From an uncultured Thermoleophilia bacterium (lineage in GTDB: Bacteria > Actinomycetota > Thermoleophilia > UBA2241), in assembly GCA_963715985.1 (NCBI GenBank), contig CAVQSP010000014.1, forward strand, positions 480,001-544,000: a DNA stretch of 64,000 nt, written 5' to 3'. Below the pieces are notes generated by a model, which was given only the letters and a program-made list of their open reading frames with translations, was not told where the DNA came from and did no database searches. This document shows positions 23,018-58,947 of the stretch, piece by piece. Numbering within the stretch: position 1 is the first letter of the stretch; every line of letters starts with the position of its first letter. A program made the translations under genes and the position numbers.

Positions 23018-23075
23018 TTGAATCGCGCTGCCCGATACCTTACGGTAGGATGCGTAAAGTGATATGTGAATACCA
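23018..23075 (+). promoter_or_regulatory. promoter plus TGATAT-N4-ATACCA operator for the 23.1-32.2 kb operon
   Basis: TTGAAT(23018)-17 nt-TACGGT(23041); palindrome at 23060-23075. Confidence 0.65.
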
Positions 23076-23095
23076 TTGATGAGAGGGCGTGCCGC

Positions 23096-24924: not shown

Positions 24925-24947
24925 CGCACACGAAAGGGACACAGCCG

Positions 24948-25718: not shown

Positions 25719-26940
25719 AAAGTAGCAGGGGGCGGAAGGCGCACCTGCCGATGCGTCGTCATCGTCTCTGCGGTCCGCACCGCTCTCGGGCCGCGTCGGC
25801 GGGGCGCTGAAGGACGTGCAGCCCGAGGAGCTCGGGCGAGTCGTCCTCTCGGCCGCGGTGGAGCGCGCAGGCGTGGAGCCGGCCGAGGTGGACGAAGTCA
25901 TCATCGGCCAGACCAAGCAGAGCGCGGACGCCGCCAACCTGGCGCGCGTGGCCGCGCTCAAGGCCGGCTTCCCCGTCGAGGTGCCGGCCTACACGGTGAT
26001 GCGCCAGTGCGGGTCCGGGATGCAGGCGGTGAGCAACGCCGTGCAGGCCATCTGGTGCGGCGAGGCCGAGATCGTGGTGGCCGGTGGCGTGGAGAGCATG
26101 AGCCTCGCGCCGTACTACCTGCGCGGCGCCCGCTTCGGCTTCACCTCGGGCAACGCCGTGGTCGTCGACTCCAACACCGAGAGCCAGCCGCGCTCGCAGC
26201 CGTACGAAGTGTACGGTGACCTCACCATGGGGCTCACGGCCGAGAACCTGGCCGAGAAGTACCACATCGCGCGCGAGGAGCAGGACGGGTTCGCGCTGCG
26301 CAGCCAGGAGCGCGCCTTCGCGGCCATCGAGAGCGGTCGCTTCGCGGACGAGATCGTGCCCGTGGAGGTCCCGGCGCGCAAGGGCCCCCCGCAGGTGTTC
26401 GACACCGACGAGCACCCGCGCCGCACCAGTCTGGAGGCCCTCGCCAAGCTCGGGCCGGTGTTCAAGGACGGCGGCAGCGTCACCGCCGGCAACTCCTCCG
26501 GCCGCAACGACGGCGGCGCCTGCCTCGTGCTGATGTCCGCGGAGACCGCGCGGGAGAGGGGCGTCGAGCCGCTCGCCACCGTGCGCTCGCAGGCCGTGGC
26601 CGCCGTGGACCCGCGCATCATGGGCATCGGGCCGGCCCCGGCAACGCGCAAGGCGTTGCAGAAGGCCGGCCTGGACCTCGCCGACATCGGCCTCATCGAG
26701 CTCAACGAGGCCTTCGCGGCCCAGAGCCTGGCCGTCGTCAAGGAGCTGGGCCTGGACCAGGACATCGTCAACGTCAACGGCGGCGCCATCGCCCTGGGGC
26801 ACCCCCTGGGCTGCTCCGGCGCCCGCATCCTCACCACCCTGCTCCACGAGATGCGCAAGCGAGGTACCCGCTACGGGCTCGCAAGCATCTGCATCGCCGG
26901 CGGCCAGGGCATGGCCACGATCGTGGAGGCTGCCGGCTAG
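25715..26940 (+). CDS. acetyl-CoA C-acetyltransferase (thiolase); N-terminus frameshifted
   Basis: VVIVSAVRT (shifted), QCGSGMQA, GGVESMS, VTAGNSS, ELNEAF, NGGAIALGHPLG, CIAGGQG; exact start uncertain. Confidence 0.9.
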
Positions 26941-26985
26941 CGCGCGCCCAGCGCCGCCGACTCCACCGTCCGCAAGGAGAGAGCT

Positions 26986-27792
26986 ATGACAGGAATCGTC
27001 AAAGACCCCTACTCCGGGCTCGAGCTCATCGAGCTCAGCCACGTGTGGGGGCACGGGGTCCCGTCCGAGCCGGGCCAGCTTGACGTCCGCATGCAGCGCG
27101 CCGTGAAGCACGCCCAGCACGGCGTGCTCGCCTGGCGCGTCATCACCAGCCTGCACACGGGCACCCACATGAACGCCCCCATCCACATGGTCCAGCGCGG
27201 CGACGATCTGGCCGCCGTCTCCCCGGACCGCCTCTTCGGCAACGCCGCCGTGCTCGACATCCCCAAGCAGAGCTGGGAGGTCATCACGGCCGCCGACCTC
27301 GAGGCTGCCACTCCGGCCGTGCAGGACGGCGACATCGTCGTCATCGTCACCGGCTGGCACCACAAGTACTCCGACGGCCTCGAGTACTTCGGGGAGGCGC
27401 CCGGCCTGACCAAGGACGCCGCCGAGTGGCTCGTCAAGAAGGACCCGAAGTTCGTGGCCGTCGACACGCCGTTCATCGACGTCCCGCTCGCCACCTCGAT
27501 GGGCCCGCATCGCGGCGGTCCGCAGATGAAGCGCCTCGCCCTCGAGTACGCGGCGGCGACCGGCAGGGACGCCAAGAAGGACTTCCCGGAGTGGTTCCCC
27601 GCGCACAAGACCCTCGCCGCCGCGGGCATCCCGACGGTCGAGCAGGTCGGCGGCGACGTGGACCTCGTCAAGGGCAAGCGCGCCACCATCGCCGCGACCC
27701 CCTGGAAGTTCGAGCACGGGGACGCCTGTCCGGTCCGCATGATCGCCATGCTCGACCCGTCCGGCAAGCTGCGCATCGACGCCGGCAACTGA
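26986..27792 (+). CDS. cyclase-family (kynurenine formamidase/isatin hydrolase-like) metallohydrolase A
   Basis: ELSH, HTGTHMNAPIH, GDIVVIVTGW, PGL, VDTP, AHK..E, DACPVR. Confidence 0.82.
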   Translation: MTGIVKDPYSGLELIELSHVWGHGVPSEPGQLDVRMQRAVKHAQHGVLAWRVITSLHTGTHMNAPIHMVQRGDDLAAVSPDRLFGNAAVLDIPKQSWEVITAADLEAATPAVQDGDIVVIVTGWHHKYSDGLEYFGEAPGLTKDAAEWLVKKDPKFVAVDTPFIDVPLATSMGPHRGGPQMKRLALEYAAATGRDAKKDFPEWFPAHKTLAAAGIPTVEQVGGDVDLVKGKRATIAATPWKFEHGDACPVRMIAMLDPSGKLRIDAGN

Positions 27793-27821
27793 CGACCAGC
27801 GGACGAGAAGGGACACCGGAC

Positions 27822-28603
27822 ATGACTGTCAAGGTCTACAACCTGAGCCACACGTTCACGCAGTTCATCCCGGAGTGGCCGTCCACTCCGAGCGTGAACG
27901 TCAAGGTGAGCAAGTTCCATGCCAAGGACGGCATCTACGAGGTGGAGTGGGAAGGCATCATGCACCGCTGCACGCACATGGACGCGCCGCTCCACGTCAC
28001 CGAGAACACGCCGAGCATCGCCGACTACCCGCTCTGGCGGCTGGTCGGCACCGGCGTCTGCGTCGACATCCCCAAGGGCAAGTGGGGAGTCATCACCCCT
28101 GAGGACCTCGAGAGGCGACGCCCAAGATCGAAGAGGGCGACATCGTCATGATCAACACGGGCTTCCATCGCCTGTGGGGCGACACCGACGAGTACTTCGC
28201 CTACGGCTGCGGCATGGGGGCCGAGGGCGCCCAGTGGCTCGTCGACAAGAAGGTCAAGATGGTGGGCTACGGTCACCAGGCCAACGACCATCCCATCGCC
28301 ACCAAGCTCGTCGACCACGGCCTCGGCCCGACACAGCCGCACCTCATCGACGAGTACAAGGAGTTCACCGGCCGCGACGCCAAGGCGGACTTCCCGAGCT
28401 GGGAGCCGGCGCACAAGATCCTCATGTGCCAGGGCGGCATCCCCGGCATCGAGAACGTGGGCGGCGACCTCGACGAGGTCACCGGCAAGCGCTGCACGTT
28501 CATGGCTCTGCCGTGGCGCTGGCCGGGCGGCGACGGTTGCATGGTCCGCATTCTCGCGGTCATCGACCCGGACCAGACCTTCCGCTTCGAGACGGGGCAG
28601 TGA
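27822..28603 (+). CDS. cyclase-family metallohydrolase B (frameshift near 28115)
   Basis: NLSH, HRCTHMDAPLH, GDIVMINTGF, AHKIL..GIENVGGD, GDGCMVR. Confidence 0.82.
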
Positions 28604-28604
28604 C

Positions 28605-29816
28605 ATGAGCGACATCCTCGAGGGCGTCAAGATCATCGAGATGGGCCACGTGGTGGCGGTCCCCGCGGCCTCCTCGATGATGGGCGACTGCGGCGCCGAG
28701 GTCATCAAGATCGAGCCGCTCACCGGCGACCAGTCGCGCACGTTCCGCGGCACCGACATCAACCCCGGCTTCTACCTGCACAACCGCAGCAAGAAGAGCA
28801 TCGCCATCGACCTGCGCCAGCAGGCCGGCAAGGAGATCGTCTACAAGATGGTCGGCGACCACGACGTCTTCCTGACCAACTACCAGGCCGGCTCCCTGGG
28901 GCGGCTTGGGCTCGACTACGAGACGCTGTGCGGCTACAAGCCGGACCTCATCTACGGCCTCGTCTCGGCCTACGGCACCGTGGGCCCCGACAAGGACATG
29001 GCCGGGTACGACTTCGCCGCCGGCTGGGCACGGTCCGGCATCCAGGACATGCTCAGCGTGCCCGGCACGCCGCCGCCGGCCTCCCGGCCGGGCATCATCG
29101 ACCGCGTCTCGTCCATGCAGATCTTCGGCGGCATGTGCGCGGCGCTGTACCACCGCGAGCACACCGGCGAGGGCCAGAAGGTCGAGTTCAACCTCTACCA
29201 CACCGGCGTGTGGATGGTCGGCGCCGACATCATGGACGCGCTCATGGGGCTGCCGCTGCGGCGCGTGGACCCGGCCAAGTCGGACAACCCGTTCTACGAC
29301 GTCTACCAGTGCAAGGACGGCCGCTGGCTGCAGCTCACCGCCGCCGACCGCTACGCCAAGGCGCACGACCCGGCCGGGGCCAAGTTCTGGCAGTCGTTCT
29401 GCCGCGCCCTCGACCGCCCCGACCTCGCCGAGGATCCGCGCTTCGCCACCACGGACATGCGCCAGCAGCACCGCGACGTCCTGGCGCCGATGCTCAACGA
29501 GGCCTTCCTCGGCCACACCTACGCCGAGTGGGAGGAGCGTCTGCGCGCCGAGAACCTCATGTACGGCCCCATCCTCTCGCCGGAGCAGGTCATCGAGGAC
29601 CCGCAGGCGCTGGCCAACGACTTCTTCACCGAGGTCGACCAGCCCGGCGTGGGTACCTTCCGCACGATCAACTCGCCGTACAAGTTCGTGCAGAACCCCG
29701 CTTACGTCCATTCGCTGACGCCGGGGCTCGGGGAGCAGACCGACGAGATCCTCAGCGCTCTCGGCTACCGCGATGGAGACGTCGCCCAGCTACGCGAGGC
29801 CAAGGTAATCCTGTAG
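28605..29816 (+). CDS. family III CoA-transferase (CaiB/BaiF)
   Basis: LEGVKIIE, GAEVIKIEP, NRSKKSIAIDL, GLDYE, SAYG..GP, GYD, catalytic Asp in GIIDR, PGLGEQT. Confidence 0.9.
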   Translation: MSDILEGVKIIEMGHVVAVPAASSMMGDCGAEVIKIEPLTGDQSRTFRGTDINPGFYLHNRSKKSIAIDLRQQAGKEIVYKMVGDHDVFLTNYQAGSLGRLGLDYETLCGYKPDLIYGLVSAYGTVGPDKDMAGYDFAAGWARSGIQDMLSVPGTPPPASRPGIIDRVSSMQIFGGMCAALYHREHTGEGQKVEFNLYHTGVWMVGADIMDALMGLPLRRVDPAKSDNPFYDVYQCKDGRWLQLTAADRYAKAHDPAGAKFWQSFCRALDRPDLAEDPRFATTDMRQQHRDVLAPMLNEAFLGHTYAEWEERLRAENLMYGPILSPEQVIEDPQALANDFFTEVDQPGVGTFRTINSPYKFVQNPAYVHSLTPGLGEQTDEILSALGYRDGDVAQLREAKVIL

Positions 29817-44964: not shown

Positions 44965-44973
44965 GTAGTCGGG

Positions 44974-47584
44974 TCAGACCTGCCGTGCGTCCGGCAGCCG
45001 CTCCACCTCGATGAGGCAGGTGTTGCACGCCATGCCCGGCGAGGTGGGCGTGATGAAGCGCTTGGACGTGAGCATGTTGATGCAGCCGGCGAGGTCGGGG
45101 GAGTGGCCCGGCTCGCCGGACGGCCGGTAGTCGGCGCACGACTCGTAGGAGTGCGCCGTGCCCGGCCGCACGCGCTCGGTGACGTACGCGGCGAGGATCA
45201 CCTCGCCGCGCTCGTTGAAGGCGCGCACGAGGTCGCCGTGGGCGACGCCGCGCGCCTCCGCGTCCTCCGTGCTGAGGCGGATGATCCAGTAGCGCCGGCC
45301 GTCGTCCTTGAGCAGGCGGTGCTCCTCGATGTCGTCGGCCCACCCGTCTTTGCCGTCCCCGTGCGTGTGGAAGCTGAAGCGCGGGTGGGGCGAGAGGAGC
45401 TGCAGCGGGAAGCGCTCTGTGAGGTGCGTGGTGTGGTGCCCCTCCCAGCTCTCGATGTACTGCGGGCCCATGGCGGGGCGCTCCTCGTCCACCACGTCGC
45501 CGGAGGCGTAGAAGCGGGTGAGGCTGGAGCTGACGAACTCGATCTTGCCGGTGGTGGTCTGCAGGCCCTTGCCGCCGACCGTGTCCCACGGCGGCGGGCC
45601 CCAGTCGGGCGTGTCCCGCTTGCGGTCCTCGGCGAACCAGCGCAGCGCCGGCGTGTACGGCTTGTCCTCGGGCACGGGCACCACGTAGTAGCCCTTCTCG
45701 CGGAAGTCGTCCCACGAGATGTGCTGCGGCATGTCGCTGGCGTCGAAGATGCGCTTGACCCAGTCCAGCTCGGTCATGCCGCCGTCGGTGTAGATGTCGC
45801 CGATGCCCATCTTCGCCAGCGAGCAGGGCGAAGATCTCGTAGTCGGACCTGGACTCGCCGAGCGGCTCCACGCACTTCTGCTGCAGGACGATGATGCGGT
45901 GGTTCACCTGCTCGAACTTGTGCGTGCCGTAGCCGGAGGCGTGCGCCCAGTCACCGATGTCCCAGCGCTCGAAGTTGGTGCAGGCGGGCAGCACGATGTC
46001 GGCGAAGCGCGTCTCGCCCTCCATCCAGATGGACTGGTTCACGACGAAGGGGATCTCGCCCTCGCGGTAGGCGGTCACGTAGCGGTTGGTCTCGGTCATG
46101 GTGCCGAAGAAGGAACCACCGTACCGGTAGTACATCTCCACGTGCGGGTAGCCCGGCGCCGGGTACTTGTACTCGGGGAACTGCGCCTCGATGGACGAGC
46201 CGCAGAAGCCTTTGCCGTTCCAGCGCAGCTCTTCGTGCCGCATGGCCTCCGGGATGCGCAGGCGCGGCACGGTCTGCCCCTCGGTGGAGTGCTGCGGGTT
46301 GCTGATGAAGCCGCCGTCCGGCCACATGCGGCTGGCCAGCTTCTTGCCCGCGGCCGTGCCGGCGACGTCGCCGGAGATGCCGCCCTCGGCGTAGCCGGGG
46401 AAGAAGAAGTCGGCGTCGAACGGCACGCCGCTGGTGGTGGACCAGAGGTTGCTGCCCGGCTTGCCGAGGCCCTGCATGGCGACGAGGGCGATCATGGCGC
46501 GCGCCCACTCGTTGCCGCTGGAGGCGCGGCAGGCGCCGCCCCAGCCGCCCTGGCCGCCCGCGGCGAGCATGGTCTTCCTGCGGCCCCAGCGGCGGGCCAG
46601 GGCGCGGATCTGGCGGGCGGGGACGCCCGACTCCTCCTCGGCCCAGGCGGGCGTCTTGGGCAGCCCGTCGCTCTCGCCGAGCACGTACGCCTTCCACTCG
46701 TCGAACCCGTGCGTGTGCGTGGCCACGTACTCCGTGTCGTAGGTGCCCTCGGTGAGCCAGGTGTGGGCGATGGCGAGGGCCAGCGCCACGTCGGTGCCCA
46801 GGCGCGGCGCCAGCCACTTGCCGCCTATCAGGGCCGCCGTGTGGTTGTGGTAGGGGTCGATGAACACCATCTCCACGCCGAGCTGCTTGAGCCAGTCGCG
46901 GCGGGAGGTGCTCTCGAAGGAGGCGTAGACGCCGCCGGTGGTCTCGGGGTCCGATGACCAGAACACCATCATCTCGGTGTGCTTGAGCGCGTCCTCGAGG
47001 AGGTCGTACTGCTCGGGGATGCCGAGGCGGTGGCTGAAGCCCCACATGTGGGCGCCGCCCCACTGCCAGCCCTCCCAGCTGTCCGGGTTGTGCTCGCCGT
47101 AGGTGTAACCGACCAGGTTCATGAAGCGGTTGTAGGCGCTGAAGCGGTAGCCGACGTTGCCCCACAGGTGGTGCGAGCCGGGGGTCGTGAGCATGCCCGC
47201 CGGACCGACCTCGCGCTTGATGCGCACGATCTCGGCGGCCACGATGTCGAGGGCCTCGTCCCAGCTGATGGGCTCGTAGCCGGACTCGCCGCGCTTGTGC
47301 GTGTTGCGCGCCCCGTCGGGGTCGAAGTCGACCCGCTTGAGGGGCGTGAGGATGCGCGAGGGCGAGTAGATGGTGGCGCGGTGCGCCACGGTCCACGGGG
47401 AGAGCGTGGTCTTGCGCGGGGGCGAGAACGAGCGCCCGCGCGCCTCGATCTTCCACGAGGGCGCATCGTCGTCGTCGAGCTGCAGAGGGATGATGCGCTG
47501 GATGCGTCCGCCGGCCACGTCGACGTGGACGGGGCCGCCGGTGGTGAGGCTGGTCAGTCGCCTGACGGGCTGCGTGGCGTGCAT
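44974..47584 (-). CDS. pyrogallol-phloroglucinol transhydroxylase large subunit-like Mo-bisPGD enzyme, paralog A (closest to PgtL/AthL; frameshift near 45818)
   Basis: TGGPV.V.V, DAPSWKIEARG, SHHLWGNVGYR, HNPDSWEGW, GGWGGACRAS, FPGYAEGGISGD, SPHPRFSFHT; no N-terminal Fe-S Cys, no Tat signal. Confidence 0.88.
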
Positions 47585-47804: not shown

Positions 47805-50012
47805 TCAGGCCTTTCCGTAGGTCGGCACGGTGCCGTAGTTCTCGCGTGTGGAACACCTCGTCCTGCATGTCCTCGTCGGCGGCCTTGTAGACCTTGCAGA
47901 TGAGGCAGGTCATGTCGGGCGACCCGTACATGGGGTCGAGGTGGTCGTTGCTGGTCAGCACGTTGGGGTTCGAGATGAACACACCGTGGTACCCCTTGGC
48001 CGGCTCCTCCGGATAGAACCAGTTGGCGGTGCACATGATCATGTCCTTCTTGATGCCCGCGAAGGCGTGCAGCTTCTGGCGGATGCGGCCGCGCTGCGTC
48101 TCGATCCAGATGATGTCGCCGTCCTCCACACCGTACTTCTCGCAGGTCTCCGGGTGCATCTGGCACTGCGGGAACTCCATGTAGCTGCGCAGCCAGGGGA
48201 TGTTGCGGTACTGGCCGAGGAAGTAGAAGGGCTGGCGGAAGCCGGTGCTCAGGAGGAGCGGGTACTCCTTGAACAGCTCCGGCGTGCTGACCGGGCTCTC
48301 GCCCGGCTCGCGGAACACCGGCAGCGGGTCGTACCCGAGCGACTCGAGGTGGTTCGACTTGAACTCGAACTTCTTGCTCGGGGTGGGGAACCCGCCACCC
48401 TCGTGCCAGTAGTCGGTCTTGTACTTGTAGTACACCTGGTCGGGCCCCATGCAGCCGCTGATGAGGTTCTTGCTGAAGTCCTTCCAGGTCATGGTGCCGT
48501 TCATGCCCTTGCGGACCTGGTAGTCGAGCAGCGAGGGGACGTCCTCGAACCACTTGTCGGGCACGACGCGCTTGCCGACCTCGTTGAAGATCCAGGCGTC
48601 GGCCTTGCGCCTCGCCGGGCGGGTCGATGACCTTGTTGTGCGCCTCGATCATGAACCGCGGGTGCATGTCGTACACGTCGTCGAGCTCGAGCCAGTGGGC
48701 GGCCGGCAGCACGATGTCGGCCGCCTCCGCCATCGGCCCCATGAAGAGGTCGGTGTGCGACATGAACTCGACCTTCTCGATGGCCGCGACGACCTCTTTG
48801 GTGTTGGCCATGTGCACGATCTGCTGCCCGCCGACGCTGAACCAGACCTTGACCGGGCTCTTGCCGTCGTTGATGGCCTTGACCATCGTGTCGGGATTGC
48901 ACGTGCGGGCGGCGCCCATCTTGTACGTGTCGCCGCCGATGATCTTGCTCGCCATCTCCGGGGTGATCGGCAGCTCCAGGAAGAAGTCCTCGATGAGGCC
49001 GGTCTCCGGCAGGACCCAGGTGATCATGCTGCCCGGCCGCTCGATGTTGCCCGCCAAGCCCATGAGGCAGGTGATGGCGCGCAGCGTGTGGCCGCAGTTG
49101 GCCTGGCGCTCGAGGGAGCTGCCGACCTGGATGCAGCCCGGCGTGTCGACGGCCCACATCTCGGCTGCCGTCGTCACGTGCTCCTTGGGGATCCAGCAGA
49201 TGTCGGAGACCTTCTCCGGAGTGAAGTCCTTGACGCGCTCGCGGAGCTCGTCGAACCCGAACGTCCAGTCCTCGACGAACTCCTTGTCCCAGAGCTCCTG
49301 CTCGATGATGTGGTTCATCATCCCCATGGCCAGGGCGCAGTCGGTGCCCACGCGCGGCTGGATCCAGAGCGAGGCCCGCGAGGCATACGCCGTGGCTCGC
49401 GGGTCGATGATGATGAGGTTCTTGCAGTAGTCGAGCGAGTTGATGAACCAGTAGGCCATCTCGGAGTCGGCGCTGCTGATCTCCAGCTGCTTGGCCCACA
49501 TGATCTGGGTCTTGGGGAACTCGCCGCCCCAACCGTGGTAGTCGCAGTACAGGCGGCCGTAGCCCGTCACGAGGCCGTAGAGCCCGAGCCGCGGGCTGTG
49601 ACACACGTAGCCGGGCGTGATGGCGTTGCCTGTGCCGAGCGAGCGCGCCATCTTCATGGTGTAGCGGTTATAGCCGCGGCCCGGTGCCCTGTGAGATGGC
49701 GATGGTGTGCGGGCCCGGGTCGGCGATCGCCGCCTTCATCTTCTCGGCGATCGTGTCGAGCGCCTCGTCCCAGCTGATGCGCTCCCACTTGCCCTCGCCC
49801 TTCTTGCCGACCTGCTTCATCGGGTGCTTGATGCGATACGGGTTGTCGATGTGCTGGATGCTCGAGAGGCCCTTGGAGCACATCGTGCCGTTGGTGGTCG
49901 AGTCCGGATTGCCTTGGATGTGGACGATCACGCCGTCTTCGACGGTGACGATGACGCCGCAGCCGCCGTGACAGCTCTTGCACGTCGTGAGGATCTGCTT
50001 GCGCTCAGCCAT
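47805..50012 (-). CDS. Cys-ligated Mo/W-bisPGD oxidoreductase with N-terminal [4Fe-4S], acetylene-hydratase/catechol-dehydroxylase clade (frameshifts near 49680, 48605, 47845)
   Basis: CKSCHGGC...CSKG, ISWDEALD, QGTG, GYVCHSP, IDPR, GTDCALA, ADIVLPAAHWLE, GFPTPS.KFE, GYDPLP.F.EP, molydop-binding C-terminus; 3' end 47805 or 47776 depending on frame. Confidence 0.82.
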
Positions 50013-50046
50013 TGTCTCCCTTTTCCGACAGGCCCGGAGGCCGGCC

Positions 50047-51024
50047 TCACGCGACCTTTGGAAGGACGGACCGGTAGATCCCGACCTTGAGGACGGAGTA
50101 CTTCAGGGCGAACGCCCCGATCGTGTGGCAGACGATCGCCACGACCAGCAGCGACTCGGTGCTTGTCGTCTCGCCCATGAACAGCGTCGCGAACGAGATG
50201 ACCAGCGGAGTGACGATGCCGAGGATCACGAGCAGGATCCAGAACACCCAGGCGGTGCTTCCCTTGATCAGGTCCTGCGCGGCGAGCTCGGCGGTCGAGT
50301 GCTTGCGGTAGGCGCGGACCAGGTAGCCGGCGATCAGCAGGGCGTTGACGATGAGGAGGATGCGGCTCCAGGACTCCAGTGTGTCGATGGCCACGTCCTT
50401 GCCTGTCATCAGGCTCACGCCCATGGTGAGGGCCAGACCGTCGGCGATGCCCATGATGACGAACACGATGGGCAGCAGGCCGGTGTTCCAGAAGGGGAGG
50501 CTCTTGCAGTAGCTCATGGCGAAGCCGCAGTACACGCCGGTGAGGACGATGAACACGCCGGCGACGATGCCGACGATCCAGGCGAGCACCGTGACGACGT
50601 CTGCAGCCGAGGCGCTGAGGTCGACCCAGTGCAGCAGGTACCACAGGACGATCTGCAGGAAGCCGGTGGCCGCGAACACGATCGAGAAGAACATCCCCCT
50701 GGCGAACCACGAGGTCTTCCAGGCCTTCGTGAACGGGGGGATCGCGCGCCAGAAGTTGCGCTTTCTGCCGAGGTACAGGAAGTGCAGCGGCAGCTTGAAG
50801 AGCATGATCAGCGCCCAGCCGAGCACGGTGGCCCACCAGGCGCCGGTGGTGATCCCCCAGATCCCGGCGATCAGGCCCACGAGGTACGTGCCCATGCCGA
50901 GCGCGGAGAAGACCTCGGCGAGCCACACGAGGATGCCCTTGCCGGAGATCCACTCCTTCTGGCGCATGGGCTTGACCATCCACTCGTGGGTGGTGATCCA
51001 CTGGCGGCGGGTCTGCGCCTTCAT
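50047..51024 (-). CDS. NrfD/PsrC-family membrane anchor (quinone-interacting)
   Basis: About 8 hydrophobic helices, HFLYLGR, TSWFARG, Y.GF..S....PFWN, LKVG. Confidence 0.82.
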   Translation of the reverse strand: MKAQTRRQWITTHEWMVKPMRQKEWISGKGILVWLAEVFSALGMGTYLVGLIAGIWGITTGAWWATVLGWALIMLFKLPLHFLYLGRKRNFWRAIPPFTKAWKTSWFARGMFFSIVFAATGFLQIVLWYLLHWVDLSASAADVVTVLAWIVGIVAGVFIVLTGVYCGFAMSYCKSLPFWNTGLLPIVFVIMGIADGLALTMGVSLMTGKDVAIDTLESWSRILLIVNALLIAGYLVRAYRKHSTAELAAQDLIKGSTAWVFWILLVILGIVTPLVISFATLFMGETTSTESLLVVAIVCHTIGAFALKYSVLKVGIYRSVLPKVA

Positions 51025-51812
51025 GACGTCACCTCCGCCTCATCCTTGTCGTGGCCGTGGATGCGCCGGTACGCGTCGCGGTCGACGGTGCTCAGGTGCT
51101 GGATGTGACTGCCCGTCTGCGCCTCACGCGGCGCGCTGTTGGACGGCGCACCGCCCAGCCTGTAGTCGATGTAGTACACCGAGGGATCGGTGGCGTACTC
51201 CGTGCGCAGCTGAAAGCCGATGCGGTCGCGGATGAGCCGCGAGACGTTGCTGTCCGGGTCGTCGAGATCGCCGAAGGTGAGAGCCCGCGCCTGGCACGTG
51301 TTGACGCACGCGGGGGTGGCGTCGCGGTCGATGCCGGGCCACAGCCCCTTGGACATCCCGTCGTCGATGCGCTCCGCGCAGAAGTTGCACTTCTCGGTGG
51401 TCCCCCGCTGGTGCGGGTAGAGCTCCTTGCCCTTCTTCTCGAAGCGGGTCTTCTCGTAGCCGGGGAAGTAGCCCGGGTCCTTGTCCTTGGAGAGGAAGGT
51501 GCGGTTCTGGTATGGGCAGGCGATCACGCAGTACCGGCAGCCGATGCATTTGTTCGAGTCGATGACGACGATGCCGTCCTCGCGCTGGTGCGACGCCTCC
51601 GTGGGGCACACGTGCACGCACGGGGCATCGGCACACTGGTTGCAGCGCACCGGGTACGTGCTGACGTCCACGGCGCCGTCCTCGTCCACCTCATAGGCGA
51701 TGAGCTTGACCCAGGTGATGTGAAGCGGCAGGAAGTGCTCGATCCTGCAGGCGGCGACGCAGGCGTGGCAGCGCATGCACTTCGCCAGGTTGATGACCAT
51801 TCCCCATCTCAT
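51021..51812 (-). CDS. NrfC/PsrB/DmsB-type 4x[4Fe-4S] electron-transfer subunit
   Basis: WGMVINL.KCMRCHACV.AC, CNQC..APCV.VCP, CIGCRYCV.ACPY, KCNFC..R...PACV..C, FGDLDDP. Confidence 0.9.
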   Translation of the reverse strand: MRWGMVINLAKCMRCHACVAACRIEHFLPLHITWVKLIAYEVDEDGAVDVSTYPVRCNQCADAPCVHVCPTEASHQREDGIVVIDSNKCIGCRYCVIACPYQNRTFLSKDKDPGYFPGYEKTRFEKKGKELYPHQRGTTEKCNFCAERIDDGMSKGLWPGIDRDATPACVNTCQARALTFGDLDDPDSNVSRLIRDRIGFQLRTEYATDPSVYYIDYRLGGAPSNSAPREAQTGSHIQHLSTVDRDAYRRIHGHDKDEAEVTS

Positions 51813-51876
51813 CGGCGTTCTCCTGTTCGCCGGCGGACTGGTCCCGCGTCAGGGGGCGCGACGGCGACGCGGTCTC

Positions 51877-52693
51877 CTATCGCGCAAGGGGGATGTCTCC
51901 CAGGCTCACGTCGTTCTCGGTGCTGACTTCGCGGCTGGCGCGGCGCGAACCCCTCCGCGCTGATGGTGAGCGCGTACGTGCCCTCCTCGAGCCCGGTGAT
52001 CCAGAAGTCGCCGAACGCGTCGGTCGCGACGGTGACGGCCTCGCCGCCCCCGGCGGGGGTCGCGGTGCACACGGCGCCGGTCACGACCTCCTTCTCGACC
52101 GGGTCGTACACCGTGCCGGCGATGAACCTCTTCGGCACGTTGAGGTAGTAGACGCGTGGCTTCGTGCCGAGCTCCGGCTTCCTGACCTCGGCCTTGGCGA
52201 TGAGCTCGGCGAACTCGCTCTCCTCGCCGAACTTGAGCGCTGCGGTCGGGCACGAGTCGACGCAGCGCGGCACGTCCCACTCACCGCTGTCCAGCAGGTG
52301 CGCACAGCCGGTGCACTTCTGCGCCAGGTTGAGGTCGTCGTTGAAGTAGATGGAGCCGTACGGGCAGGAGTCGACGCAGGCCTTGCAGCCGGTGCAGAGG
52401 TCGGTGTCGATGATGACGAGGCCGTCGTCGCGCTTGTACATCGCGCCTTCCACCTTGCAGGACGCCATGCAGGGCGCGTCGTCGCAGTGGTTGCAGTGGT
52501 TGGCGACGTAGTGCATGCGCACCTGGGGCACCTGGCCGCAGATGTACTCGTCCACGCGCATCCAGAACTGGCCGCTGTCCGGCTGGGGCTTGGCGATGGG
52601 AGCCCAGTCGTTGCCGACGTGCTCGTCCTTGCAGGCGAACTGGCAGCCGAAGCAGCCGTTGCAGACGCCGACGTCTACGATGAATGCCTTCAT
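51877..52693 (-). CDS. transhydroxylase small subunit-like (PgtS/BthL) Fe-S protein with C-terminal beta-sandwich (frameshift near 51930)
   Basis: CNGCFGCQFACKDEHVGNDW, CNHCDDAPC, CTGCKACV.SCPY, KCTGC, TDAFGDFW domain, shifted end VSLGDIPL. Confidence 0.82.
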
Positions 52694-52695
52694 GG

Positions 52696-55327
52696 TCAGC
52701 TGTTACCTCCCTCGACCACCCAGCCGTTGAAGCGCAGACCGGCGCCGGGGTCGTATTCTCTCTCGAAGGCCTCGGGGTACTCCGAGCGCCAGTGCTCCCA
52801 CTCCTCGGGCTTGATCTTCTGCACGTCCGCGAGGTAGCCGCTGGTGGCCTGGCCGCAGGCGTTCTTGGATGTCAGACCGTGCGGGGCGATGGTGTTGATG
52901 GCGCCGCCGCGGTCGACCTTGCCGGGGATGATGGGGTCGTGCCGGGCGCCGTGGTCGATGTAGGCCACGCCCGCCATCATGCGCTCCCACACGCAGGCGC
53001 CGGCGAGCACGATGCCGCGCTCGTTGAAGATCTTGACGATCTCGCCGTGCTTGATGCCGCGCGCTTCCGCGTCCACCGGGTTCAGCCACACAGGCTCGTA
53101 GTTGTAGTTGTCCGGGCCGAGGACCTTGCCGGTCGGCGTCTCACGCGCCCACGTGCAGTCGTCGCCCTGGGCGTGCGTCCGCCAGCGGGGGTGGTTCGAC
53201 ATGAGGATGAGCGGGAACATGTCGGCGCGCTCGCTGGAGAGCCGCTCGTCGTGCGTGATGCCCTTCTCGATCCACTTGGGGATGCCGGGGCGCTCCCTGT
53301 CGTCGGGGAAGTGCGTGGCGAGCCGCTCGGAGTAGAACTCCAGCAGGCCCGACGGGGTCTTGAGCGGATGGTTCTCGGGGTCCTCGTAGAACTCACGCAG
53401 GCCCGGAGGATCCTGCTCCCAGTCCTCTGCGGTCGGGAAGACGCAGTACTGCTTCTCCTTGAACTCGTCCCAGGTCATGTACCGATCGACGTGCATGCAC
53501 TCGTAGATCTCCTTCTCGAGATCCTCGATCGTCTTGCCCTTGGTGACCTGCTCCGTCATGCCCAGCTTCTCGGCGACCGCAAGCACGATCTCGTAGTCGC
53601 TCTTGGATTCGCCGACCGGCTCGATCGCCTTCTCCTGCAGCATGCAGGTCTGGTACGGCGGTCCCTGCCGGACGTTGGTGAGGACGTCCTCGACCTCCAT
53701 CGTCGTGTTCGCCGGCAGGATGACGTCGGCGTACAGGCAGTCGTTCTCCAGCCACGGATGCTGCGCGACGCAGAACTCGATGCTCTCATCGCGGTGCGCC
53801 TCGATGGTCCAGTTGCCGTGGTTCCAGCAGGTGATGCGGCAGGGCGTGTCGGTCCAGATCATGTGGAGCCTGGTGCCGCCTTCTTCCGGCGGGTTCGGGA
53901 ACTGGTAGTCGATGAACTGGTCCTCCGTCTCGGCGTTCTGCGCGCCGGTGCCGGAGAAGTGGATGGTCTCGCTGTTGAGGATGGCCTCCTGGATCAGCGT
54001 CTTGGGGATGTTCTGCGTGCCCCAGGCGTCGACGCTGCTCTGCACGGGGATGCGCAGGCCGTGGCTGAGGGAGGGGTTGAAGTAGCGGAAGTTCTCCAGA
54101 GACTCGGCGCGAGGCATGCCGAAGTACGAGAACTGCCACTGGTGCACGCCGGGGCCGCCGAGGCCCTGCATGCCGAGCAGGATGCACTCGAGGCGGCCGG
54201 GCTCGTGCGAGTAGGGGCCGCGGACCATGGAGCCGCCGAAGTAGTGCAGGATCGAGGTGCACTGCTTGGCGAACTCGCGTGCGAGCGCCTTGATCGTCCA
54301 CTCGGGGATGGCGGTCTTCTTGGAGGCCCACTCCGGCGTCTTGGGGATGCCGTCCTCCTCGCCGAGCACGTAGGCGGCGACCTTGTCCATGCCGACGGCG
54401 TGGGTGGCCACGTAGTCCTTGTCCCACGTGTCCTCCTTGAGCCACACGTGGATGATCGCGAGCTGCAGCGCGGCGTCGGTGTTGGGGAGGATGGGGATCC
54501 ACTTGTCGGCGTGGACGGCAGCACCGAAGTTGAGCTCGGGGCAGATGTAGATCTGCTTGATCCCGACCTTGGTGAAGAAGTAGCTGATGTTGGTCGCGTT
54601 CTGCCCGGTGAAGCCCCACGGCGTGGTCTCGTCGTCGCAGCCCCACTTGAGCACCATGTCGCAGTGCTCGACGACGTCCTTCAGGACGTTCAGCTGGGGC
54701 GCCATCATGCCCTGGAAGCCGTGGCCCCAGACGTGCTTGGAGCCCCAGTACCAGCCCTCCCAGCTGTCCGGCTGGCGGACCTGCAGGGTGAAGCCGCCCA
54801 TCTCGTCGAGCAGGCGGGCGCTGTGGCCGTGCGGGGTGTGGATGGTCTTGCTCTCGCCGTGGCCGTCGCCCTGGACGAGGATCGCCGCCGGGCCCGTACT
54901 GCTTGTGGATCCGTGCGATCTCCTTGGCGATGATGTCCGTCGCCTCGTCCCAGGAGATGCGCACGTACTTGCTCTTGCCGCGGTTCTGCGGGTTGCGCTC
55001 GCCGTCGGGGTCCCAGTCGACGCGCTTGAGCGGGTATTTGACGCGGTTGGGTGAGTACGTGCGCTTCTTGTAGGCGGTCATGTAGGGCGCCGGGCGCGAC
55101 CGCATGCCCGGTTCCAGGGTCTCGCCGTTGCGCTCCAGCTTCCAGGGGCGGAAGCTCTCACCGTCGTACTTCCAGTCGAACTGGAACGGCCGGATGCGCA
55201 CGATCTTGCCGTCCTTGACGTCCACCATGACCTCGCCGGTGCCGCCGAGGAGGCCGCCCTGCGACAAGGCCCTGATGACGGTCTTGTCCGGGGTCACGTC
55301 GACCTTCTTGCGCTCTCTGTCTGTCAT
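52696..55327 (-). CDS. transhydroxylase-like Mo-bisPGD large subunit, paralog B (divergent; frameshift near 54890)
   Basis: VDVKDGKIVRIRP, YSPNRVKYPLKRVDWDP.GERNPQNRG, QGDGHGE, RQPDSWEGWYWG, TPSGLLEF.S, SNHPRWR.H. Confidence 0.85.
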
Positions 55328-55376: not shown

Positions 55377-56234
55377 TCAATCAGGTGACACGGAAGACGG
55401 CCGGGATGGGTTCCAGCCGAGGTAGGCGGAGAGCGAGGCGGCCGCGCTCTTGACGGCGCGCGTGCAGAGCTCGCGTTCGTCGGGGCCGAAGCGCCCGGTG
55501 GGCATGACCACGGACATCGCGGCGACAACGTTGCCGAGCTGGTCGCGGACGGGCGCGCCGACCGCACAGATGCTGGGGAAGAGCCCCTCCACGTCGTAGG
55601 CCACGTCGTCCTCGACGACGCGGTCGAGCTCGTTCGCGAGCGCCTCGGGGTCGGTGACCGTATACGGCGTGTGCCGGCGCCGCGCCTGTGCCAGCACTTC
55701 GGCGCGCTTCTCCGGCGGAGCGAAGGCGGTGAAGATCTTGCCGTGCACGGAAGCGAGGTCGCCGATGATGCGCCCCGGGGCGACGTCGCGCTTGAAGGGT
55801 CGTGCGGAGTCGATGTTGGCAACACTCACGGGCGTGCCGTCCACCGGCACCGCCAGAGTGACCGACTCGCCGGTCTCATCGAGAAGCTGCTGCAGGAACG
55901 GGCGCGCGTGCTCCACGAACTCGGAGTAGTCCTCGACCACGTAGGCCATGGCGATGGTGGCGGGGCCGAGGTGGTACTGGTTGGTCGTGGTGTCGCGGAC
56001 CAGGAACTCTGCGGCCTCCAGCGTGCGGACCATGCGATACACGGTCATGCGCAGGAGGCCGGTGCGGGCGGCCATCTCGTCGATGGTCCACTCACGACGG
56101 TCCACGTCGAACAGCGAGAGGATAGAGAGGCCGCGCGCGAGAGCGCGCACGGTGAGCGGGTCGGTCTCGGCCGGTCTGTCGTGCACGCCGCCGGCCTGAC
56201 CGCCATCGCGAGCCTGTGCTGCGGTGGTCGTCAT
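55377..56234 (-). CDS. IclR-family transcriptional regulator (paralog 3)
   Basis: RALARGL.IL, WTIDEM, TGESVTL, GRIIGD.ASVHGK, APVRDQ, PTGRFG. Confidence 0.9.
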   Translation of the reverse strand: MTTTAAQARDGGQAGGVHDRPAETDPLTVRALARGLSILSLFDVDRREWTIDEMAARTGLLRMTVYRMVRTLEAAEFLVRDTTTNQYHLGPATIAMAYVVEDYSEFVEHARPFLQQLLDETGESVTLAVPVDGTPVSVANIDSARPFKRDVAPGRIIGDLASVHGKIFTAFAPPEKRAEVLAQARRRHTPYTVTDPEALANELDRVVEDDVAYDVEGLFPSICAVGAPVRDQLGNVVAAMSVVMPTGRFGPDERELCTRAVKSAAASLSAYLGWNPSRPSSVSPD

Positions 56235-56289
56235 GCCATCCCCCTTGTCGGACCCCGATGCCTCTTGCCTGGCGCCGTTGCACAGGAGT

Positions 56290-56339
56290 ACGATATTCGC
56301 GTTGCTATCAGACGATATCAGCGTTTTGACGATATGCAA
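56290..56339. promoter_or_regulatory. AT-rich divergent promoter region with three ACGATAT half-sites
   Basis: ACGATAT at 56290, 56312 and 56329; minus-strand TTGCAT-16 nt-TATCGT. Confidence 0.5.
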
Positions 56340-56418
56340 GGTGTCTGGTCGTTCGGCGTCGCCCGGCGGGGGTCATGGCCGCGGCAGCGCTCCACGGGAG
56401 CCGGTGGGAGGTCGCCCA

Positions 56419-58947
56419 ATGAGTGAACAGGTCTTCACCAATCTGACGAACTGCGGGCCGGTGTCCGTGTACGTCAGGGACGGGGTGGTCACACGGATCC
56501 TGCCGCTCGTGGCGGACGAGGCCGACTTCCGGCCCTGGACGATCGAGGCGGGGGGCAAGCAGTACTCCCCGCCGAAGAAGTTCAACCTGGCGCCGATGGT
56601 GCACGCCGAGCGTCGGCGCCTCTATTCGGACGAGCGCATCAAGTACCCGATGAAGCGCGTCGACTTCGACCCGAACGGCGAGCGTAACCCCCAGAACCGC
56701 GGCAAGTCGGCGTACGAGCGCATCTCCTGGGACGAGGCGCTCGACATCGTCTCGGGGGAGATCGCGCGCGTGAAGAACGAGTACGGCAGCTCGGCCATCA
56801 GCGGCATGACCTCGTCGCATCACAACTGGGGCATCGTCGGCTACAAGATGGGCCCGTTCATGCGCTTCATGAACTGCCTCGAGGCCACCCCGGTCTTCGA
56901 CAACCCGGACAGCTGGGAGGGGTGGCACTGGGGCGCCACGCACACCTACGGCTTCTACTGGCGCCTTGGCATGCCCGAGCCGTTCGACAATCTGCAGGAC
57001 GTGCTCAAGAACTCCGAGATGATCGTCCTCTGGTCGAACGACCCCGATACCACGCGCGGCACCTACTCGGGCCAGGAGTCGGCCATCTGGCGCACGTGGC
57101 TCAAGGAGAAGGGCGTCCCCACAGTCTTCATCGATCCCTTCCACAACTACACGAACGCGCTCTTCGACGAGGGCAAGTGGATCGCCCCGCGTATGGGCAC
57201 CGACACGGCGCTGGCGATGGCGATCGCCTACGTGTGGATCACCGAGGACACGTACGACAAGGAGTACGTCGCCGACCGCACCATCGGCTTCGACGAGTTC
57301 AAGCCGTACGTGCTCGGCGAGACGGACGGCGTGCCCAAGACGCCGGAGTGGGCGGCCGAGGAGTCCGGCGTCGAGGCGCGCGTCATCCGCACGCTGGCGC
57401 GGGAGTGGGCCGGCAAGCGCACCGCCCTCGCGGCCGGCGCGCGGGGCGGCGAGGGCAGCGCGTGCCGGACCGCCTACGGCACCGAGTGGGCGCGGATGAT
57501 GGTGCTCCTCCAGGCCATGCAGGGTCTGGGCAAGCCGGGCATCACCATCGGCGGGATCTCGATGGGCGCTCCGGCGGACTTCGAGACCTGGTTCCCGGCC
57601 TACGCCGAGCCGCAGGGGCGCATGTCCCACTCGACGAAGGCGGCCGACTACATCCCGAAGAACTCCACGAAGCAGAGGCTGTGGCGGCTCACGGTGCCGG
57701 ACGCCATCCTGGATCCTCCCGTGGAGTGGGACGGCGCCGGCTTCTGCGGGCAGTCGCTCGAGCAGCAGTTCGAGCACTTCGTGTATCCGGCCGAGGGCTG
57801 CTCCGAGATCAAGCTCTGGTACCGCTACGGCGGCTCCTTCATGGGCACCATGTCCGACACCACCAAGTGGGTGCGCATGTACCAGAGCCCCAAGCTCGAG
57901 TTCGTCGTCAACCAGGACGTGTGGTTCAACAGCGAGACGCGTATGGCCGACGTCATCTTGCCGGCCTGCAGCAACTTCGAGCGCGACGACCTCGGCGAGT
58001 TCGCCGCCTGCGGCGGCTACACCACGAACTCGCACTCGGGCAACAACTACCGCGTCATCGTGCGTGAGCAGAAGTGCATCGAGCCCCTCTGGGAGTCCAA
58101 GTCCGACTACCAGATCCTCGCTGCCCTTTCCGAGCGGCTCGGCATCTACGACGAGTTCACGGACGGCGGCAAGACCGAGATCGACTGGGCCAAGGCGTTC
58201 TACGACTGCTCCGACCTGGCCAAGGTGCTCGACTGGGAGACCTTCGACAAGAAGGGCTACCACATCATCAACGCCCCCGAGGACTACGAGCCCAAGCCGT
58301 GCCTGCGCTGGTTCGCGGAGGGCCGCGCCTGCGACACGCCCGACACCGGCAACCCGAAGCGCGGCACCGACAAGGCGCACGAGCTCGGCACCTACAGCGG
58401 CAAGATCGAGTTCTCGTCCGAGAGCCTCAAGGCTCACTTCCCGGACGACCAGGAGCGGCCTGTCTCTCCCCGGTACATCGAGAGCTGGGAGGGCCATCAC
58501 ACGACCGAGCTCATCGAGAAGTACCCGCTGCAGCTCATGTCGCCGCATCCGCGCTTCTCGTTCCACTGCCACTACGACAAGCACACCGACTGGCTCGACG
58601 ACATCCCCGTCCACCGCATCAAGAAGGACGGCTACGCGTGGTGGCCGGTGCGCATGAGCCCGGCGGACGCGGACGCGCGCGGCATCCGCAACGGCGACAT
58701 CGTGCGCCTGTACAACGACCGCGCGTCCGTGCTCTGCTGCGCGGTCGTCACCGAGCGGATCCGCCCGGGCATCGTGCACAGCTACGCGTCGTCGGCCAAG
58801 TACGACCCGCTCGAGCCCGGCAAGGCCGACTCGGTCGACAAGGGCGGGTGCGTGAACATGCTGACGCCGTCGCGGATGGTCAGCCGGCACGCCCCGGGCA
58901 TGACGCCCAACTCGTGTCTCATCGACATCGCGAAGTGGGAGGGCTGA
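56419..58947 (+). CDS. transhydroxylase-like Mo-bisPGD large subunit, paralog C (intact ORF)
   Basis: GPVSVYVRDG, SSHHNWGIVGY, DNPDSWEGWHWG, ACRTAYGTEWAR, FPAYAEP, AACGGY, SPHPRFSFH. Confidence 0.9.
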   Translation: MSEQVFTNLTNCGPVSVYVRDGVVTRILPLVADEADFRPWTIEAGGKQYSPPKKFNLAPMVHAERRRLYSDERIKYPMKRVDFDPNGERNPQNRGKSAYERISWDEALDIVSGEIARVKNEYGSSAISGMTSSHHNWGIVGYKMGPFMRFMNCLEATPVFDNPDSWEGWHWGATHTYGFYWRLGMPEPFDNLQDVLKNSEMIVLWSNDPDTTRGTYSGQESAIWRTWLKEKGVPTVFIDPFHNYTNALFDEGKWIAPRMGTDTALAMAIAYVWITEDTYDKEYVADRTIGFDEFKPYVLGETDGVPKTPEWAAEESGVEARVIRTLAREWAGKRTALAAGARGGEGSACRTAYGTEWARMMVLLQAMQGLGKPGITIGGISMGAPADFETWFPAYAEPQGRMSHSTKAADYIPKNSTKQRLWRLTVPDAILDPPVEWDGAGFCGQSLEQQFEHFVYPAEGCSEIKLWYRYGGSFMGTMSDTTKWVRMYQSPKLEFVVNQDVWFNSETRMADVILPACSNFERDDLGEFAACGGYTTNSHSGNNYRVIVREQKCIEPLWESKSDYQILAALSERLGIYDEFTDGGKTEIDWAKAFYDCSDLAKVLDWETFDKKGYHIINAPEDYEPKPCLRWFAEGRACDTPDTGNPKRGTDKAHELGTYSGKIEFSSESLKAHFPDDQERPVSPRYIESWEGHHTTELIEKYPLQLMSPHPRFSFHCHYDKHTDWLDDIPVHRIKKDGYAWWPVRMSPADADARGIRNGDIVRLYNDRASVLCCAVVTERIRPGIVHSYASSAKYDPLEPGKADSVDKGGCVNMLTPSRMVSRHAPGMTPNSCLIDIAKWEG

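Follow-up and report, generated by a model that had tools for sequence, protein, structure and literature searches.

A predicted cytoplasm-facing, NrfD-anchored relative of acetylene hydratase in an uncultured Thermoleophilia bacterium and its possible role in polyhydroxybenzene catabolism

We analysed a 64,000-nt stretch of DNA from an uncultured Thermoleophilia bacterium (the window; contig CAVQSP010000014.1, all positions counted from its first letter) with regard to three adjacent genes for a catalytic molybdopterin-type subunit related to acetylene hydratase (AH), an NrfC-like ferredoxin and an NrfD-like membrane anchor, referred to as alpha, beta and gamma. To judge from its sequence, this module works like an NrfD-anchored iron-sulfur molybdoenzyme complex that is turned towards the cytoplasm. 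Its catalytic family is uncharacterised and nameless in every library searched. Concerning function, we tentatively favour, as a possibility that falls short of probable, a cytoplasm-facing, membrane-bound, quinone-linked hydroxylase or dehydroxylase of a polyhydroxybenzene that feeds phloroglucinol catabolism; complex formation, quinone coupling, substrate class, direction and any energy conservation are parts of what we infer here. An earlier note, made by a model from the letters alone, had proposed a respiratory catechol dehydroxylase for positions 47805-51812, i.e., exactly from the start codon of the NrfC-like gene to the stop codon of the catalytic gene. The three genes are:

51024..51812, minus strand: beta, an NrfC/DsrO-like ferredoxin with four [4Fe-4S] motifs and without signal peptide (Pfam Fer4_7/Fer4_11)
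50047..51024, minus strand: gamma, an NrfD-family membrane anchor of 325 aa (Pfam NrfD, E 3.4e-16; about 8 hydrophobic helices)
47805..50012, minus strand: alpha, the AH-related catalytic gene

The G+C content of the window is about 65-74%, such that raw lists of open reading frames (ORFs) are full of spurious frames; genes were resolved by codon-position G+C and three-frame translation. The latter shows that the catalytic gene, treated as continuous in the earlier note, is not one open frame. It is spread over three reading frames plus a 12-codon tail in a further frame, and three frameshifts that the note passed over become visible in comparison with the intact 734-aa orthologue of a related locus (L007; 92.9% nucleotide identity to the window, blastn), which serves as reference for the frame breaks. 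The pieces are:

49674..50012, minus strand: piece 1, 113 aa, the [4Fe-4S] domain with CKSCHGGCG and MCSKG (Pfam Molybdop_Fe4S4, 1.9e-14; 90% identity to L007 residues 1-111)
48602..49672, minus strand: piece 2, 357 aa, containing GYVCHSPR with the presumed Cys metal ligand (Pfam Molybdopterin, 4.1e-25; 97.8% identity to L007 residues 114-469)
47839..48600, minus strand: piece 3, 254 aa, the dinucleotide-binding domain (Pfam Molydop_binding, 4.6e-18; 90.5% identity to L007 residues 471-722)
47805..47840, minus strand: C-terminal tail and stop codon; its ...NYGTVPTYGKA* agrees with the tail of the full-length relative P0003

All motifs on which the earlier note had built are found in these pieces. 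The CxxCxxxC-C cluster is present as CKSCHGGCG...MCSKG (Cys11, Cys14, Cys18 and Cys45), and the putative Cys metal ligand lies in GYVCHSPR. A twin-arginine (Tat) leader is absent as the note had stated: the first cluster Cys is residue 11, which leaves no space for a signal peptide. Along the same lines, NCBIfam models of Tat-exported enzymes align only from their own positions of about 41-45 on (PhsA 41, DmsA 42, NapA 45; FdnG likewise). The His that the note had placed at the position of AH's Asp13 is seen in the alignment to the AH structure 2e7z, made with P0003, which has the same motifs. In this alignment, Cys137-His138 of the family pairs with Cys141-Ile142 of 2e7z.

To assess conservation, we use a scan of one genome per GTDB species, in which 226 loci encode a relative; all context counts refer to the best 80. 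These 80 are all metagenome-assembled genomes (MAGs) and cover Thermoleophilia, Gaiellales, other Actinomycetota, Dehalococcoidales, Chloroflexia, Desulfatiglans, Desulfobacterales, Acidobacteriota, SAR324 and one betaproteobacterium. GY[VI]CHSPR occurs in 80/80 loci, while C..CHGGCG was detected in 77. The Asp13 position is His in every one of these 77, which bears out the doubt on acetylene hydration that the earlier note had voiced. Furthermore, Cys11, Cys14, His15, Cys18, Cys45, Lys47, Cys137, His138 and Arg141 do not vary among 12 family members (68-83% identical to P0003), and the ligand Cys is retained in at least 90% of 99 relatives. A His after the second cluster Cys is common in neighbouring sequence clusters, among which Cys-His at the ligand is scattered. 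That is, residues of the His15/His138 type, as aligned, exclude acetylene hydration without defining the family. A structure prediction from the 12-sequence family alignment reached a mean pLDDT (predicted local distance difference test) of 46.3 and is too poor for use.

The adjacent genes for a 4x[4Fe-4S] protein and an NrfD anchor reported in the earlier note are both present directly upstream of the catalytic gene. Beta has 16 cysteines in four motifs (residues 12, 15, 18, 22; 57, 60, 65, 69; 89, 92, 95, 99; 142, 145, 169, 173). It scores 182.6 bits against the NCBIfam model DsrO (cut-off 200), aligned from model position 43. The same holds for its matches to TtrB and NrfC, i.e., all three models align only past their signal regions, and the first cluster motif of beta already starts at residue 12. 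For gamma, a crude hydropathy scan with the positive-inside rule predicts an N-in/C-in topology. Thus, for the prediction of topology and signal peptides that the earlier note had called for, alpha and beta come out without signals and gamma with about 8 helices and both ends cytoplasmic. Since neither soluble subunit (alpha, beta) has a signal, the straightforward reading is a complex with its active site facing the cytoplasm.

AH is a soluble, non-redox, stand-alone enzyme that has no partner subunits. Its Asp13, next to cluster Cys12, activates the water ligand, and Ile142 together with a hydrophobic ring surrounds the substrate. The family shares with AH of Pelobacter (Syntrophotalea) acetylenicus (2e7z) the CxxCxxxC...C cluster, Lys47/48, the position of the ligand Cys, the MopB fold, the lack of a signal peptide and a (here predicted) cytoplasmic location, and the two align over nearly their full lengths (727 vs. 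734 aa). In contrast to AH, the family shows His in place of Asp13 and His138 in place of Ile142, and it comes with a four-cluster ferredoxin in every locus scored and with NrfD in nearly all of them. Lacking Asp13, Ile142 and the stand-alone state, the family is not an acetylene hydratase.

We also ranked solved structures for the full-length relative P0003. AH (2e7z) comes first with 281 bits, followed by FdhF (174), FdhH (165) and the thiosulfate reductase 2vpw (146). Piece 2 of the window likewise finds 2e7z as its best PDB match (6.8e-36). No NCBIfam model reaches its cut-off for the catalytic subunit. The best matches are Fdh-alpha and PhsA (255-276 bits), far under their cut-offs: TIGR01591 (Fdh-alpha) yields 255.2 and 272.9 bits vs. 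666.25, with only the N-terminal half aligned, and PhsA (NF012032) 241.1 and 276 bits vs. 694. The earlier note had named grouping with formate or thiosulfate/polysulfide enzymes as the outcome that would speak against it; by these scores such enzymes lie at least 100 bits under AH, and an assignment of the family to formate dehydrogenases or Psr/Phs enzymes is not supported.

These scores also bear on the idea that the substrate is not aromatic at all, i.e., that the module is a cytoplasm-facing oxidoreductase of formate, a sulfur compound or another small molecule and that its aromatic context is incidental or inherited. We consider this quite improbable. It draws on the top NCBIfam matches being Fdh-alpha and PhsA, and on Cys137-His138 at the ligand, which matches what we take to be the Sec/Cys-His pair of formate dehydrogenases. 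Against it stand the wide gap to the cut-offs of both models and the lead of AH by about 100 bits over any formate or thiosulfate enzyme. Moreover, the ...RGQNNVQG... stretch of FdhF, whose Arg is presumably catalytic, aligns to a gap or to unrelated residues in the family and is thus without counterpart.

With respect to architecture, the module resembles PsrABC/PhsABC and other NrfD-anchored complexes, which combine a catalytic MopB protein, a four-cluster ferredoxin and a haem-free NrfD subunit for quinol or quinone. PsrABC/PhsABC are Tat-exported and face the periplasm, whereas alpha and beta of the family have no signals.

Catechol dehydroxylases, which modify a phenolic ring, are reported to form the group nearest AH, and for some of them a 4Fe-4S protein and an anchor in the membrane serve as partners (PMC7028382). 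The same source describes Dadh, Hcdh and Cadh of Eggerthella lenta as bearing Tat signals and supporting respiration, with Hcdh of about 134 kDa, while Dodh and Cldh of Gordonibacter are given without Tat signals and without anchor (PMC7028382). The family shares with the Eggerthella enzymes adjacent ferredoxin and anchor genes and, as predicted from its domains, a cofactor of the bis-molybdopterin guanine dinucleotide type. It differs from them in that alpha has no Tat signal, while the Eggerthella enzymes face outward and Hcdh is much larger. The label "catechol dehydroxylase" of the earlier note is therefore not supported as it stands: Tat-bearing enzymes and a catalytic subunit of the size of Hcdh (PMC7028382) are not what the module encodes. 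An anchor without Tat signal is a pairing that is, again by the descriptions, unlike either the Eggerthella or the Gordonibacter enzymes.

To place the family among its relatives, we searched with piece 2 alone; the matches, far above chance level, comprise 1253 proteins at E<=1e-10. Among the best 120, identity is 69-97%, most proteins are about 730 aa long, and names are generic only; a search of the ESM Atlas with the family also returned generic labels only. We observe a tight family with 68-97% identity over Thermoleophilia, other Actinomycetota, Desulfobacterota, Acidobacteriota and Chloroflexota. In a search of 1.84 billion representatives of 50%-identity clusters, at least 150 uncharacterised representatives score above AH's 281 bits to the family (the 150th best still has 295 bits). 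The nearest full-length outgroup among the cluster representatives is 52% identical and the rest at most 41%. Hence, the earlier assignment of the catalytic subunit to AH relatives stands insofar as AH is the best solved relative, but at least 150 unnamed clusters are nearer than AH.

This is also reflected in a FastTree phylogeny of 141 sequences (6 family members and 135 representatives of 600-1300 aa; midpoint-rooted, no named outgroups). The family forms a clade (support 1.0) with P0121 as sister (1.0), followed by P0125 and P0131 (0.94). An AH-type pair, anchored by P0184 (607 bits to 2e7z, C-D motif), sits on a different branch, and the smallest clade with both the pair and the family comprises 127/141 leaves with support 0.36. 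In the literature, we found no description of the family or of its link to NrfCD, with the supplements of the eLife paper (Figure 7 tree) lying outside this search. What comes nearest is a passing remark that scaffolds of Chloroflexi hold AH-like genes as well as pyrogallol hydroxytransferases (PMC3971608).

The conservation of the partner genes was assessed by tblastn of window proteins against the 80 loci, 76 of which have at least 1900 nt upstream and can be scored for partners. An NrfC-like gene is upstream of alpha in 76/76 of them, and 74 also show an NrfD-like gene between the two. In two deltaproteobacterial/Pseudomonadota MAGs, the NrfC-like gene directly abuts the catalytic gene (L062:9169-12174 and L063:9158-12166). 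Extra NrfC-NrfD pairs are found in Dehalococcoidales/Chloroflexia MAGs (L039:1663-6223, L039:13234-17390 and L078:16391-20570); one adjoins an AthL-like gene, the others more distant AH-like paralogues. Cytoplasmic MopB enzymes with NrfCD partners may be a wider theme.

Within the window, the module is part of a minus-strand operon with the order Ath1 (55327..52699), BthL-like (52693..51812), NrfC-like (51812..51024), NrfD-like (51024..50047), AH-related catalytic gene (50012..47805) and Ath2 (47584..44977). Stop and start codons overlap at Ath1/BthL, BthL/NrfC and NrfC/NrfD, the last overlap being 4 nt. Relevant genes in and around the operon are:

52699..55327, minus strand: Ath1, first operon gene, a divergent protein like the large subunit of pyrogallol hydroxytransferase (Pfam AhtL-like_1st, Molybdopterin, Molydop_binding), with a frameshift at about 54895
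51812..52693, minus strand: BthL-like small subunit (Pfam Fer4_11 and CarboxypepD_reg, i.e., 4Fe-4S and carboxypeptidase-regulatory-like domain)
44977..47584, minus strand: Ath2, last operon gene, close to the large subunit of pyrogallol-phloroglucinol transhydroxylase, with a frameshift at about 45814
55377..56339, minus strand: IclR-family regulator (Pfam IclR_C and HTH_IclR) between the operon and the divergent Ath3; its position is conserved in Thermoleophilia loci
56200..58944, plus strand: Ath3, a third transhydroxylase-like large subunit (Pfam), divergently transcribed and followed by a BthL-like remnant at 59235-59777
23063..29813, plus strand: phloroglucinol-pathway-like set (Pfam: 3-hydroxyacyl-CoA-dehydrogenase-like, BKACE, SDR, thiolase, cyclase(s), family III CoA-transferase)

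Against the transhydroxylase of P. acidigallici (4v4c), Ath3 scores 878.8 bits over 915 aa, Ath2 843.6 bits over 589 aa and Ath1 319 bits over 701 aa. In other phyla, the paralogue found alongside the module is Ath1. The transhydroxylase residue that we take to be Tyr404 (its role and number are assumed) is aligned to Arg in Ath1. The characterised phloroglucinol cluster comprises TfD, TAL, PGR, a thiolase, DPGC and a CoA-transferase (PMC10470551). The window set at 23063-29813 looks complete and matches the families of that cluster (TfD-like, TAL/BKACE, PGR/SDR, thiolase, DPGC/cyclase) at a distance of about 20 kb from the operon.

A similar picture is observed for the related loci. Of the loci, 50 are flanked by 8 kb or more at either end. 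An Ath1-type gene is present in 23 of these 50, a minimum of two phloroglucinol-pathway genes in 23, and either feature in 40. Loci with such aromatic context belong to Actinomycetota, Desulfobacterota, Acidobacteriota, SAR324 and one Chloroflexia MAG. Five loci were annotated with Pfam. At L017, an IclR-SDR-BKACE-3-hydroxyacyl-CoA-dehydrogenase-binding protein set is divergent from NrfC-NrfD-alpha, and at L051 an AthL/BthL pair follows the module. The neighbours at L073, L026 and L045 are unrelated, with FdnG/H- and FdhE-like genes upstream at L045 and hydrogenase-like genes upstream at L073. The phenolic-metabolism role proposed in the earlier note thus receives independent backing from gene context, i.e., from the transhydroxylase-like genes of the operon and from such genes or phloroglucinol genes in several phyla. 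The recurrence in several phyla argues also against a non-aromatic substrate, for which the loci without aromatic context (8/50 of those well flanked, including L045 and L073 with the genes just named) could be put forward.

AthL/BthL (4v4c) and the resorcinol hydroxylase RhLS are, like the activity considered here, cytoplasmic Mo enzymes that move or add hydroxyls on polyhydroxybenzenes without oxygen, and AthL/BthL-type genes are co-encoded with the module. They differ in belonging to another MopB branch, in which the metal ligand is Ser and the N-terminal cluster is absent (PMC10100899). Alpha is only about 20-24% identical to the three AthL-like paralogues of the window. A counterpart role to the hydroxyhydroquinone dehydrogenase BtdLS was considered for the module and rejected: BtdS is a 135-aa DoxX-family protein and not NrfD (PMC10084136).

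Ath1 orthologues (58-94% identity) adjoin the module in 35/80 loci. One could hence view the module as an electron-transfer or membrane-docking device for its AthL/BthL-type neighbour, with an AH-like subunit that is non-catalytic as QrcB in the Qrc complex. Besides the Ath1/BthL genes directly beside the module in these 35 loci, this is suggested by L039, where an NrfC-NrfD pair lies directly before an AthL-like gene such that NrfCD can accompany that enzyme type, and by a weak match of alpha to the QrcB model (103-115 bits vs. cut-off 440). We deem this view very improbable indeed: the cluster cysteines, the ligand Cys and the surrounding residues are invariant over phyla, the ligand Cys is retained among relatives as stated above, and many Actinomycetota/Chloroflexota loci have the module but no AthL-like gene within 10 kb.

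For the favoured (de)hydroxylase, the following mechanism can be proposed. Alpha would hold Mo or W in a bis-pyranopterin cofactor, with Cys as metal ligand and a [4Fe-4S] cluster in the N-terminal part; beta would be the wire, a ferredoxin with four clusters, and gamma the NrfD-type anchor, at which quinone or quinol would bind. The complex would add a hydroxyl to a polyhydroxylated benzene or remove one, and the two electrons of this reaction would be exchanged with the menaquinone pool. In the anaerobic catabolism of trihydroxybenzenes, it would act before phloroglucinol reductase and ring cleavage. We favour the reductive direction, in which a hydroxyl flanked by other hydroxyls would be removed, e.g., 1,2,3,5-tetrahydroxybenzene to phloroglucinol; either menaquinol or the co-encoded AthL/BthL-type hydroxylase would supply the electrons. 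Quinone-linked (de)hydroxylation is suggested by the subunit families (redox-equipped AH relative, electron wire and quinone-type anchor), the lack of signals, the conserved gene order and metal-site motifs and the recurrent linkage to transhydroxylase-like and phloroglucinol genes, together with the fact that the only ring-modifying enzymes reported near AH are reductive catechol dehydroxylases (PMC7028382).

Several points weigh against this interpretation. Sequence fixes neither the direction of the reaction nor the substrate. Many unnamed clusters are at least as near to the family as the characterised dehydroxylases, and none of the representatives listed resembles the Tat-bearing Eggerthella type of about 1200 aa. 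There is no characterised family member, and since the best 80 loci are all MAGs, there is no physiology to draw on. At L062 and L063, the NrfD-like gene was not detected between NrfC and alpha. Furthermore, 8 of the 50 well-flanked loci (L026, L039, L045, L068, L073, L075, L078 and L080) have neither a transhydroxylase-like nor a phloroglucinol gene; most of these come from Dehalococcoidales and Chloroflexia, and there is a single MAG each from the betaproteobacteria and the Korobacteraceae. The loci share phylogeny, such that their counts are not independent, and come without a random-gene control. Finally, the frameshifts could be real and leave the catalytic gene dead in the source organism.

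The same complex acting on the same class of substrate could also run oxidatively, i.e., as a water-dependent hydroxylase/dehydrogenase (e.g., of resorcinol or a trihydroxybenzene) that would pass two electrons via beta to menaquinone at gamma. This would resemble the logic of SoeABC, which is cytoplasm-facing, combined with resorcinol hydroxylase chemistry. We grant this direction some chance while doubting it. The evidence from architecture and context is identical to that for the reductive reaction, and many hosts are respiring anaerobes (e.g., Desulfobacterales, Desulfatiglans) for which such electrons could be of use. Oxidative, oxygen-independent resorcinol hydroxylation by a Mo enzyme is established in Aromatoleum anaerobium (PMC10084136). 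On the other hand, the known anaerobic ring hydroxylases are of the Ser-ligated AthL/RhL group (PMC10100899), a type that is already encoded next door, and the exclusively reductive ring chemistry reported near AH (PMC7028382) points the other way.

A more specific variant involves the five-gene set of Ath1, BthL, NrfC-like, NrfD-like and AH-like alpha as a "split transhydroxylase", which we rate as rather unlikely. Here, the AthL-type enzyme would oxidatively hydroxylate hydroxyhydroquinone or pyrogallol to 1,2,3,5-tetrahydroxybenzene, from which the AH-type enzyme would reductively remove the hydroxyl flanked by two others to yield phloroglucinol. The two electrons would pass between the half-reactions via the menaquinone pool at the NrfD subunit. 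If true, a formally redox-neutral phenol isomerisation would be membrane-coupled and could conserve energy, and the source of the tetrahydroxybenzene co-substrate of classical transhydroxylases would be explained.

To our knowledge, only one enzyme type, the transhydroxylase, is known to funnel other hydroxybenzenes into phloroglucinol. The family is highly conserved and occurs in no fewer than 226 species-level genomes; it could supply a step of this funnel that has been missing so far and is linked to the membrane. It would also be the first relative of AH that connects to an NrfD quinone module on the cytoplasmic face of the membrane. With its defined operon, few candidate substrates and a simple viologen/quinone assay, it makes a concrete, testable target. 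If the frameshifts are mere errors and the enzyme is a plain reductase, a useful annotation would still result for many proteins labelled only "molybdopterin-dependent oxidoreductase". Phloroglucinol itself is the hub through which tannins and flavonoids are broken down anaerobically, a process of relevance to the carbon stored in peat, soils and sediments (PMC10470551).

Finally, we evaluated the frame breaks of the catalytic gene relative to L007 (blastn):

about 49682, minus strand: frameshift 1, one extra G (GG to GGG)
about 48608, minus strand: frameshift 2, one extra base (GAGGCGCAAGG vs. GAGGC-CAAGG of L007)
about 47845, minus strand: frameshift 3, one extra base close to the 3' end

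Intact orthologues exist as uninterrupted 734-codon ORFs in L005, L007 and L009, and L006 is open over the 733 codons present on its contig. Ath1 and Ath2 show one uncompensated 1-nt insertion each (at 54895 and 45814). All five uncompensated breaks of the operon (49682, 48608, 47845, 54895, 45814) are an extra G on the coding (minus) strand in G/C-rich context. That is, we see only single-base insertions, each an extra G, which is a one-sided error pattern and no mixture of insertions and deletions. Apart from the breaks, the three catalytic pieces have no internal stops or larger deletions.

Similar breaks occur elsewhere in the window (within 3705-7625, 14159-16676, 20360-22078 and 28103-28600). 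The gene priA is split over two frames, and def runs into fmt in one ORF. In addition, the large subunit of an XDH-type enzyme is split between MoCoBD_1 and MoCoBD_2, an aldehyde:ferredoxin oxidoreductase is split, and the second cyclase gene is partial. Frame breaks that are spread over the window and include essential genes indicate an indel-prone assembly. Because housekeeping genes are split alike and the pieces are stop-free and 90-98% identical to intact orthologues, assembly error appears the more likely cause of the three 1-nt insertions.

The alternative is that, in this organism, the breaks are genuine and both the catalytic gene and the two AthL-like genes beside it are pseudogenes of a decaying cluster, whatever the family does elsewhere. 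The three uncompensated insertions in alpha and the one each in Ath1 and Ath2 fit this view, as does P0001, the closest database relative, which is likewise out of frame near its C-terminus. We still find it unlikely, given the same kind of break in the essential priA and def/fmt, the high identity of the pieces to intact orthologues outside the breaks without stops or larger deletions, and scattered split genes also in the related MAG loci L003, L015, L024 and L037. P0001 (712 aa; 97% identical over the middle piece) is out of frame in its last 50 or so residues, which suggests an indel problem common to related public records. For the BthL-like protein, the C-terminal residues (about 50) look out of frame, with an Arg/Pro-rich tail and uncompensated indels relative to L007 near 51931-51961.

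Concerning the remaining window, G+C is 0.646-0.704 at 44001-58000 (the operon region), below most of the first 20 kb (0.69-0.74). Together with the 68-83% cross-phylum identity of the catalytic protein, this lower value hints at lateral spread of the cluster. Three hydroxytransferase large-subunit paralogues lie within 14 kb, and Ath2 lacks its own adjoining gene for a small subunit. The stretch that separates the operon from the phloroglucinol genes encodes two Peripla_BP_6 solute-binding proteins along with branched-chain-type ABC permeases/ATPases (35932-43670); binding-protein genes of similar kind also flank the module in several Actinomycetota loci. Further metalloenzyme genes comprise an XDH-family set (2Fe-2S, MoCoBD and FAD-binding parts) at 13562-20176, which runs into a GltD-like Fer4_20/Pyr_redox_2 part and is followed by the tungsten-type aldehyde:ferredoxin oxidoreductase at 20360-22078. 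MoaF is found at 34657-35574.

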